Assembly: GCA_010093605.1 (NCBI GenBank)
Contig: MU004202.1
Location: 197,560-261,559, forward strand
Direction: 5' to 3'
Length of the DNA stretch: 64,000 nt
Source of the DNA: Lophium mytilinum
Lineage: Eukaryota
Under the pieces are notes generated by a model. The model did not search any database. It saw nothing but the letters and a program-made list of their open reading frames with translations, and had not been told where the DNA came from. Each line of letters begins with the position of its first letter. The stretch's first letter is position 1. This document shows positions 55,542 through 56,537 of this stretch, one piece after another. The position numbers and the translations under genes were made by a program.

Positions 55542-56537
55542 CTAGGCATTGAGCGCAACAGCACGCTTTTCGGGACCACACTCAGGCCAGCAGAATGGCG
55601 CCCCGCACCAGCCGGGGTGGCACTTGTCGGTGGTGGATGTGGCTTCACGAGCCTCGATCTCAACCGCACGCTTGCCATTTGGTCCGCACTCGGGATAGCA
55701 GAATGGCGCTCCGCACCAGCCGTGATTGCACTTGTCGGTGCTAGCCTCACGAGTCTCAACCTGGCGCTTCTCTGCCTCCATCTGGGCGCCAACCTCGCGA
55801 GCCCTGAGCTGGACCGCCTCGCCATCTTCACGAGCCTTGAGCTTGGTGGCCGCTGACGGCTTGCCTCCACCTGGAGCGCACTCGGGATAGCAGAACGGGG
55901 CGCTGCACCAGCCATGGCGGCACCGGCTCTCAGCGTCCGCATCGTTGTCAGTCGTAGCAACCTCCCGCTTGCCGTTGGGGCCGCACTCAGGATAGCAGAA
56001 CGGTGCGCCACACCAGCCGTGGTTGCACTTATCGGCGCTGGCCTCCTCACGAGCCTTGAGCTGAACCGCCTCGCCATCTTCGCGAGCCTTGAGCTTGACC
56101 GCCTCTGACGGCTTCGAGTTCCATCCAGCCGGACGGCACTTAGGATTGCAGACCCGGGCACCGCACCAGTGAGGTTCGCACCGGCTCTCAGTGTCCGCAT
56201 CGTTGTCAGTCGGAGGGGGGACCCACCAGTGTTGACGCTTCTCCGCAACGTCACGCTTCTCCTTGCCGTTGGGGCCGCACTCAGGGTAGCAGAACGGTGC
56301 GCCGCACCAGCCGTGGTTGCACTTGTCGGCGTCCGCAACGATGTCAGTCGGAGGAACCTCCTGACGCTTCTCCGCGACGTCACGCTTCTCCTTGCCGTTG
56401 GGGCCGCACTCCGGGGAGCAGAACGGGGCGCCGCACCAGCCGTGGTTGCAGTCGTCCGGGGTGGCTTCGGTAAATGGGAGTGCGGCGGCGAGGCCGATGA
56501 CGGCGGCGCCGGCGATGAGGAGGGTGGTGAGCTTCAT
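55542..56537 (-). CDS. Secreted Kex2-processed repeat protein (KEP): precursor of seven four-cysteine peptides
   Basis: Signal peptide MKLTTLLIAGAAVIGLAAALP; seven C-x4-C-x4-C-x3-C cores; eight KR sites; acidic spacers with EA/DA dipeptides; intronless. Confidence 0.9.
   Translation of the reverse strand: MKLTTLLIAGAAVIGLAAALPFTEATPDDCNHGWCGAPFCSPECGPNGKEKRDVAEKRQEVPPTDIVADADKCNHGWCGAPFCYPECGPNGKEKRDVAEKRQHWWVPPPTDNDADTESRCEPHWCGARVCNPKCRPAGWNSKPSEAVKLKAREDGEAVQLKAREEASADKCNHGWCGAPFCYPECGPNGKREVATTDNDADAESRCRHGWCSAPFCYPECAPGGGKPSAATKLKAREDGEAVQLRAREVGAQMEAEKRQVETREASTDKCNHGWCGAPFCYPECGPNGKRAVEIEAREATSTTDKCHPGWCGAPFCWPECGPEKRAVALNA

Follow-up and report, generated by a model that had tools for sequence, protein, structure and literature searches.

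A 64,000-nucleotide stretch of the Lophium mytilinum genome (GenBank assembly GCA_010093605.1, contig MU004202.1, positions 197,560 to 261,559 of the forward strand; hereafter the window) carries on its reverse strand a gene, P0001, that probably encodes a secreted polyprotein of the Kex2-processed repeat protein (KEP) kind, from which peptides with two disulfides would be released. The coding sequence, at 55542..56537 (-), is complete and consists of a single uninterrupted frame of 331 codons from ATG to TAG, for which no intron is required. It comprises seven cores of four cysteines with the spacing C-x4-C-x4-C-x3-C, set among spacers that are enriched in Lys-Arg (KR) and Leu-x-x-Arg (LxxR) sites. 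This single-gene layout with seven cores of invariant spacing had been proposed in a sequence-only reading of the same DNA, and both the reading frame and all seven core sequences listed there were confirmed.

In the proposed route, a signal peptide of about 19 residues would direct the precursor into the endoplasmic reticulum (ER) and would then be removed, while two disulfides would form in the ER within each 15-residue core. A late-Golgi kexin (Kex2-type) would cut after eight KR sites and probably also after six sites of the form aliphatic-x-x-R, and a Kex1-type carboxypeptidase would remove the basic ends. The outcome would be the release of seven peptides of roughly 25–50 residues, which would represent five core variants, alongside short acidic fragments from the spacers.

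The Proposed Precursor and Its Four-Cysteine Cores

KEPs have been defined, in the accessible part of the survey of Le Marquer et al. (2019; PMC6339444), by a signal peptide and at least three repeats, with KR, KK or RR between them and with the repeats covering at least 15% of the protein length. In P0001, the seven 15-residue cores make up 105 of the 331 residues (32%) and KR is found between the repeats. The predicted signal peptide (codons 1–19; 56481..56537, -) is signal-like as judged by eye only, with MK followed by a hydrophobic stretch and A-A-A at residues 17–19. The same MKLTTLLI start is present in P0010, an unnamed relative of 171 residues.

The cores, all on the minus strand, start at residues 30, 73, 120, 171, 206, 270 and 306. 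Core 1 is CNHGWCGAPFCSPEC (residues 30–44; 56406..56450, -). Three cores share the sequence CNHGWCGAPFCYPEC, namely core 2 (residues 73–87; 56277..56321, -), core 4 (residues 171–185; 55983..56027, -) and core 6 (residues 270–284; 55686..55730, -). The most divergent is core 3, CEPHWCGARVCNPKC (residues 120–134; 56136..56180, -), and the set is completed by core 5, CRHGWCSAPFCYPEC (residues 206–220; 55878..55922, -), and core 7, CHPGWCGAPFCWPEC (residues 306–320; 55578..55622, -), which makes five variants among seven cores. All 28 cysteines of the protein fall within these cores, no other copy of the motif is seen in any of the window's six frames, and 20,000 shuffles of P0001 gave at most two matches to it.

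The arrangement of the units is also regular. The residue pair immediately before the core is DK, DD or SR in all seven cases. In a first type of unit, the core is followed by GPNGK(E)KR or GPEKR (five cores); in a second type, represented by cores 3 and 5, it is preceded by TDNDADxESR and followed by ...KLKAR-EDGEAVQL(K/R)AR. This organization looks like a duplicated two-unit block.

Putative Processing Sites in the Spacers

The KR pair occurs eight times in P0001 (residues 51, 57, 94, 100, 190, 257, 289 and 324), a number reached by one of 100,000 shuffles of the protein, for which 1.39 pairs are expected; RR, KK and RK have zero occurrences. Neither this number nor the set of cores is attributable to chance. 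P0001 has in addition four [KR]AR and two E[AT]R sites, and all six fit the pattern aliphatic-x-x-R, since the former are invariably L-x-A-R (LKAR three times and LRAR once) and the latter are V-E-T-R and I-E-A-R. Every one of the eight KR and the extra K/R-A-R, ETR and EAR sites announced by the sequence-only reading was located in the protein. The four LxxR motifs are matched by 170 of 100,000 shuffles, and the seven [LIV]xxR motifs by 68 of 100,000. Fifteen of the 20 arginines sit at KR or aliphatic-x-x-R spacer sites; the other five are found in the SR (ESR-C) preceding cores 3 and 5 (two), within cores (two), and right after core 3 (one).

KR is present in five of the six inter-core intervals and again after the last core, and the interval between cores 3 and 4 contains two LKAR and no KR. 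Complete cutting at KR and aliphatic-x-x-R would give seven core fragments of 27–51 residues before trimming, with net charges from -2 to +2, and the remaining predicted fragments would be spacers of 5–11 residues. A junction of the LxxR type, in which P4 is Leu and P1 is Arg, has been described for Kex2 in fungal effectors in the accessible part of a preprint that cites yeast work for an aliphatic preference at P4 (10.1101/2020.05.27.120113). On that basis, the KR sites of the window gene and the LxxR sites of its relatives, described below, could be joined under one protease type.

A layout of this kind recalls the alpha-type sex pheromone precursors (MF-alpha1, ppg1 and ccg-4), which are likewise secreted multi-copy precursors cut at KR and which also have a Trp-Cys element in the core, and P0001 could be an unusual four-cysteine form of them. 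A search by language-model features in the ESM-Atlas pointed in the same direction, since the cluster ranked first was 'Pheromone 1' (score 0.87, 171 shared features); a score below 0.9 is a lead only, and the ranking may be taken as recognition of the shared KEP layout. In non-Pleosporales Dothideomycetes the alpha pheromones are of the two-cysteine type, like those of Sordariomycetes, and the mature alpha pheromones belong to a 9–24-residue class, according to the part of the survey that was accessible (PMC6339444). P0001 departs from this type in several respects. The residues after its eight KR sites (DV, QE, DV, QH, EV, QV, AV and AV) never form the X-A or X-P dipeptide that is the signature of STE13 (0/8), which argues against a typical alpha pheromone. 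The core has four cysteines in C-x4-C spacing and not two, and it abuts neither the site before it nor the KR after it; the predicted product is longer, with acidic extensions. Moreover, one precursor holds five different cores, and its relatives fall into several separate clusters. A pheromone precursor, which the sequence-only reading had kept as an alternative, is accordingly considered improbable.

Constraint on the Core Sequence

Cores 2, 4 and 6 agree in all 17 encoded residues (the core plus the following G-P) but not in their DNA. Between core 6 and cores 2 and 4, eight of the 17 codons differ, with eight synonymous and no non-synonymous changes, and two codons, both with synonymous changes, distinguish core 2 from core 4. 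Since identical cores are encoded by diverged DNA, the peptide sequence is under purifying selection, and synonymous-only divergence of this kind is what would be expected if selection acted on the peptide itself.

Parts of a close relative of the gene are present in contigs from other public sequencing runs. Those from runs X4, X10 and X9, of 179–245 nucleotides with 5–7 differences each, were used solely to class changes as synonymous or not. Two changes fall within cores, and both are synonymous (codons 176 and 308). Eight fall in spacers, of which three are synonymous and five change the amino acid, and one spacer deletion of three nucleotides keeps the frame.

Related Proteins and the Conservation of Putative Processing Sites

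A word-indexed search among proteins of similar length found only P0001 itself. A HMMER search over 1.84 billion representative proteins brought out a handful of relatives, in five other clusters (E 5e-25 to 6e-5), and a profile built from the seven 41-residue units gave ten matches at E<=1 among longer proteins, seven of them new. Taken together, the relatives split into several separate protein clusters that derive from metagenome contigs and public assemblies. Two of them are assigned to a source organism, OCL07430.1 from Glonium stellatum and XTI92260.1 from Cenococcum geophilum, both annotated as 'hypothetical protein'. The family is small and restricted to a lineage, known so far from only a few related fungi.

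The relatives are not uniform in their spacers. In P0010, EKR or VKR sites lie 10 residues past the cores. For the remaining relatives, the gene calls are short and contain two cores arranged as EEAKTKP-core-GP..., and KR is absent in most of them. A census of 29 proteins, which used the Trp and the loop after it as an anchor and so missed cores lacking those, returned 60 cores; 47 have four cysteines and 13 lack one or more, and all 13 lie in proteins other than that of the window gene. Across the 23 distinct intact cores, G4, W5, G7, A8, P9, F10, P13 and the following G-P are near-invariant, and the variable positions are 2, 3 and 12.

Of the 48 intact family cores, 46 are followed within the next 30 residues by KR or LxxR; one of the two exceptions is a fragment that ends three residues beyond the core and the other is a copy with LAEL. 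In the Cenococcum/Glonium type the site is LVER, LAER, LAKR or LVGR and always ends 12 residues past the fourth cysteine. A post-core site is kept in three lineages (the window gene, P0010, and the Cenococcum/Glonium type), and this conservation across the family strengthens the idea of processing. The KEP layout claimed by the sequence-only reading is in this way supported at the level of sequence by the repeats, the KR sites, the selection on the cores, and the conserved post-core sites.

A pattern scan of metagenomes produced 73 matching stretches, of which four, L001 to L004, passed tblastn. Two of these, L001 and L002, are Cenococcum-like loci with four cores each (5760–6700 in L001 and 5560–6560 in L002). 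In both, the second core lies in another frame and lacks its first cysteine, and there is no in-frame ATG before the signal-like segment; these copies may reflect either decay or small introns. L003 and L004 were discarded as chance matches in short alternative frames lying over longer open reading frames (ORFs).

Degenerate and frame-shifted cores of this sort are what could be expected if the window gene were itself without function, either an open frame arisen by chance or a repeat in decay. In P0001, however, all seven cores are intact, the identical ones differ only synonymously, and the frame has a signal-like start and a clean stop; furthermore, the frame is kept by relatives in other organisms. 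The absence of function is for these reasons regarded as extremely improbable.

Weighing Release Against an Intact Protein

Several observations weigh against the release of peptides by Kex2-type processing. On its N-terminal side the core does not abut a site, and the products would keep 6–18 additional acidic residues unless another protease trims them. The 48 cores surveyed are spread over 29 proteins, of which many are closely paralogous or fall into shared 90% clusters, and so represent far fewer independent observations. KR is missing from most relatives, whose LxxR sites, the only ones present, have Glu or Gly at P2 and would by the dibasic rule be poor Kex2 substrates; processing at those sites, and hence processing as a family trait, is less certain as a consequence. 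With 13 of 60 cores missing a cysteine and an out-of-frame core in L001 and L002, a part of the family seems to be decaying. No confident fold was obtained for the 41-residue unit with AlphaFold2 from a 19-row alignment (mean predicted local distance difference test, pLDDT, 50.4; predicted template modeling score, pTM, 0.16). Finally, P0021, a partial protein of 85 residues, has a single intact core, placed at the end of a Pro/Ser/Thr-rich linker. It possibly represents a different architecture built on the same module, and it resembles a module of a larger protein.

The last observation bears directly on a second explanation, in which P0001 would be an intact secreted or wall-associated repeat protein whose four-cysteine units act as tiny binding modules (for a carbohydrate, a metal or a protein), with acidic linkers between them and sites that are uncut or partly cut. 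Binding modules often sit at the end of such a linker, as the core of P0021 does, and most relatives have no dibasic site. The core, written as HGWCG..FC.P.C, also recalls the aromatic-G-aromatic-C-G...aromatic-C part of hevein-type chitin-binding domains. A hevein-type (CBM18) assignment nevertheless found no support: Pfam gave no family for P0001 at E<=10, chitin-binding ones included, and the unit profile gave no match among PDB sequences at the same threshold. Pfam on the relatives and on a conserved neighbor gene returned only sub-threshold noise. An intact protein would also leave without explanation the enrichment of KR together with the complete absence of KK, RR and RK, the concentration of arginines at spacer sites, and the conserved position of KR or LxxR after the cores, and P0021 itself is known as a partial protein from a contig of 976 nucleotides. 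This explanation is considered unlikely. If the peptides were indeed not released, P0001 would be merely an unusual secreted repeat protein.

Novelty of the Core and Comparison With Known Precursors

The claim that the core does not belong to a described family was borne out in Pfam, in PDB sequences, in the literature, and in the searchable KEP supplements. Four core strings had no occurrence in the literature searched, and no description of the family turned up in the literature on Cenococcum geophilum Kex2 or on fungal cysteine-rich Kex2 repeat peptides. The strings are likewise absent from the searchable supplements of PMC6339444 and PMC7329392; Table S2 of Le Marquer et al., the KEP list, fell outside that search, and a listing there is possible. 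Table S2 of Umemura (2020; PMC7329392) has three Glonium entries, none of which is the Glonium protein OCL07430.1. The ESM-Atlas's own model had a pLDDT of 0.38 and structure matches with template modeling (TM) scores of 0.17–0.31, which are meaningless, and a feature search with one unit (residues 59–101) gave no usable match.

P0001 has in common with the KEPs described in the accessible text of the two surveys (Le Marquer et al., 2019, PMC6339444; Umemura, 2020, PMC7329392) at least three near-identical repeats, KR between them, and no other domain; its putative signal peptide would be a further common point. The difference lies in the four invariant cysteines of its cores: the main text of Umemura contains no mention of cysteine, Cys or disulfide (PMC7329392), and Le Marquer et al., in the portions available, mention Cys solely for two-cysteine pheromones (PMC6339444). 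A further difference is that LxxR replaces the dibasic site in one inter-core interval of P0001 and in most relatives. P0001 and its relatives would therefore form a new family inside the known KEP class, with the four-cysteine core and the mixed KR/LxxR sites as its unusual points.

The Kex2-processed pro-domain (K2PP) effectors such as SnTox3, as presented in the accessible part of the preprint (10.1101/2020.05.27.120113), resemble P0001 in having LxxR and KR junctions, disordered acidic sequence before them, and a mature part with disulfides. Unlike P0001, with its seven mini-peptides, they consist of a single pro-domain and one folded effector of 100–200 residues.

Short repeated cores separated by KR behind a signal peptide are also found in the precursors of ustiloxin and phomopsin (dikaritins; PMC6339444 and PMC7329392, in their accessible parts), and the sequence-only reading had for its part called the gene similar to those of peptides that are made ribosomally and modified post-translationally (RiPPs). 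P0001 could accordingly be the precursor of a peptide further modified by dedicated tailoring enzymes, either dikaritin-like or of a new class, and a full-size ATP-binding cassette (ABC) transporter about 10 kb away (40252–45455, +) would fit such a cluster. Dikaritin cores, however, are built round Tyr-x-Ile (EDYXI consensus in the accessible part of PMC6339444) and not round Cys. The ORFs scanned in the window comprised 54 of at least 70 residues (45.4–58 kb), 75 of at least 120 residues (1–40.6 and 63–64 kb) and the large ORFs; none matched DUF3328/UstYa, a tyrosinase, a P450 or a methyltransferase, a result that short exons below these length limits could escape. With no tailoring ORF among those scanned, the RiPP-like half of the earlier proposal is not supported. 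The genes identified nearby have housekeeping roles (acireductone dioxygenase, Pex3, ArgJ, ribosomal L5), and in the relatives the locus has just one common neighbor, which is unrelated. A modified peptide of this kind is thus judged very improbable.

Outside the fungi, the Ib-AMP polyprotein of Impatiens balsamina contains several four-cysteine, two-disulfide peptides of about 20 residues with acidic propeptides between them, and it would be the closest analogue in mode of working. The Ib-AMP peptides come from a plant, are strongly basic, have a CC...C...C pattern and are unrelated in sequence, whereas the peptides predicted from P0001 are neutral to acidic. Beta-hairpins of the tachyplesin/gomesin type have the pattern C-x3-C-x4-C-x3-C and likewise place four cysteines within some 15 residues, around a central loop of four. 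Compared with them, the P0001 core has a first arm one residue longer, is not cationic, and shows no homology.

Nature of the Peptides and Possible Targets

A hairpin with the disulfides C1–C4 and C2–C3 is plausible for the core by analogy, as the four-residue G-A-P-F loop between the second and third cysteines would suit it; C1–C3 and C2–C4 is equally possible. The near-invariance between genera of residues other than Cys and the absence of a net positive charge both point to a specific molecular target (a receptor or an enzyme, for example) and not to an unspecific attack on membranes. Our guess would be an extracellular signal or a specific inhibitor or defence peptide.

A more specific reading, offered tentatively and with somewhat less than an even chance of being right, is that a single kexin-cut polyprotein supplies a clade-specific library of five ultra-compact peptide variants (15 residues, two disulfides) directed at a specific conserved target, and that this would be the first disulfide-rich class of KEP-derived peptides. 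As part of the same tentative reading, the target, a receptor or an enzyme, would belong to the fungus itself, to its competitors or to a plant partner. If this were true, the gene would be a fungal counterpart of the multi-peptide precursors of the conotoxin-like or plant Ib-AMP type.

KEP-derived peptides constitute a large and very diverse reservoir of fungal signals and toxins, catalogued and mostly uncharacterized. A near-invariant core of 15 residues is small enough for direct synthesis and testing, and it would add a disulfide-stapled scaffold to the fungal peptide types. Since relatives exist in Cenococcum geophilum, a widespread ectomycorrhizal fungus, the activity could bear on signaling between fungus and plant or between fungus and microbe. 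The use of KR here and of LxxR in the relatives offers, in turn, a natural test set for the site preference of kexin.

Surroundings of the Gene

Directly upstream of the ATG lies a leader (56539..56627, -) that is rich in C and A on the coding strand and contains 2.9 tandem copies of a 31-nucleotide unit; it is probably the 5′ untranslated region, a function proposed from its position. A candidate TATA box, TATATAAA, is located 174–181 nucleotides upstream of the ATG on the coding strand (56711..56718, -). None of the sequencing runs listed is recorded as RNA. In run X3, guessed to be of RNA and carrying another organism label, three short contigs are 100% identical to 56253–56658. They span the first ~95 codons and 121 nucleotides of the leader, and none comes from the remainder of the 1.5-kb stretch; since contigs can reveal neither ends nor transcription, these are given no weight here.

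A multi-exon gene without Pfam match (51519–53692, +) shows about 46% identity over 384 residues to a gene present in both L001 and L002. Its counterparts (979–3189 in L001 and 718–2928 in L002) lie about 3 kb from the core-peptide gene, which is inverted relative to the window. The presence of one conserved neighbor in these loci points to an inherited rather than scattered locus. Between that gene and the precursor, 0.9 kb downstream of the latter, there is a gene for acireductone dioxygenase (ARD; PF03079, 1.7e-35; 54174–54629, -), with no counterpart in L001 or L002.

On the other side, directly upstream of the precursor gene, a frame of 1683 codons (57884–62932, -) contains long Thr/Ser/Val-rich tandem repeats with units such as VYTTTQTFTVSEPSGTR. 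It also has a PAN/Apple match (PF00024 2.9e-8, PF14295 4.4e-8; residues ~1020–1074) and two Cys/Pro repeat blocks of the C-P-P-C type, and it resembles a mucin-like protein of the wall or an adhesin. The ABC transporter mentioned above has two stretches each of ABC_membrane and ABC_tran and gives no sign of a link with the precursor. Elsewhere in the window are housekeeping genes (UCH, ribosomal L5, ArgJ, a sugar transporter, Pex3 and an Alg9-like mannosyltransferase), and amid them two ORFs with a HET (heterokaryon incompatibility) domain, at 9183–10949 (-) and 16966–19053 (-).

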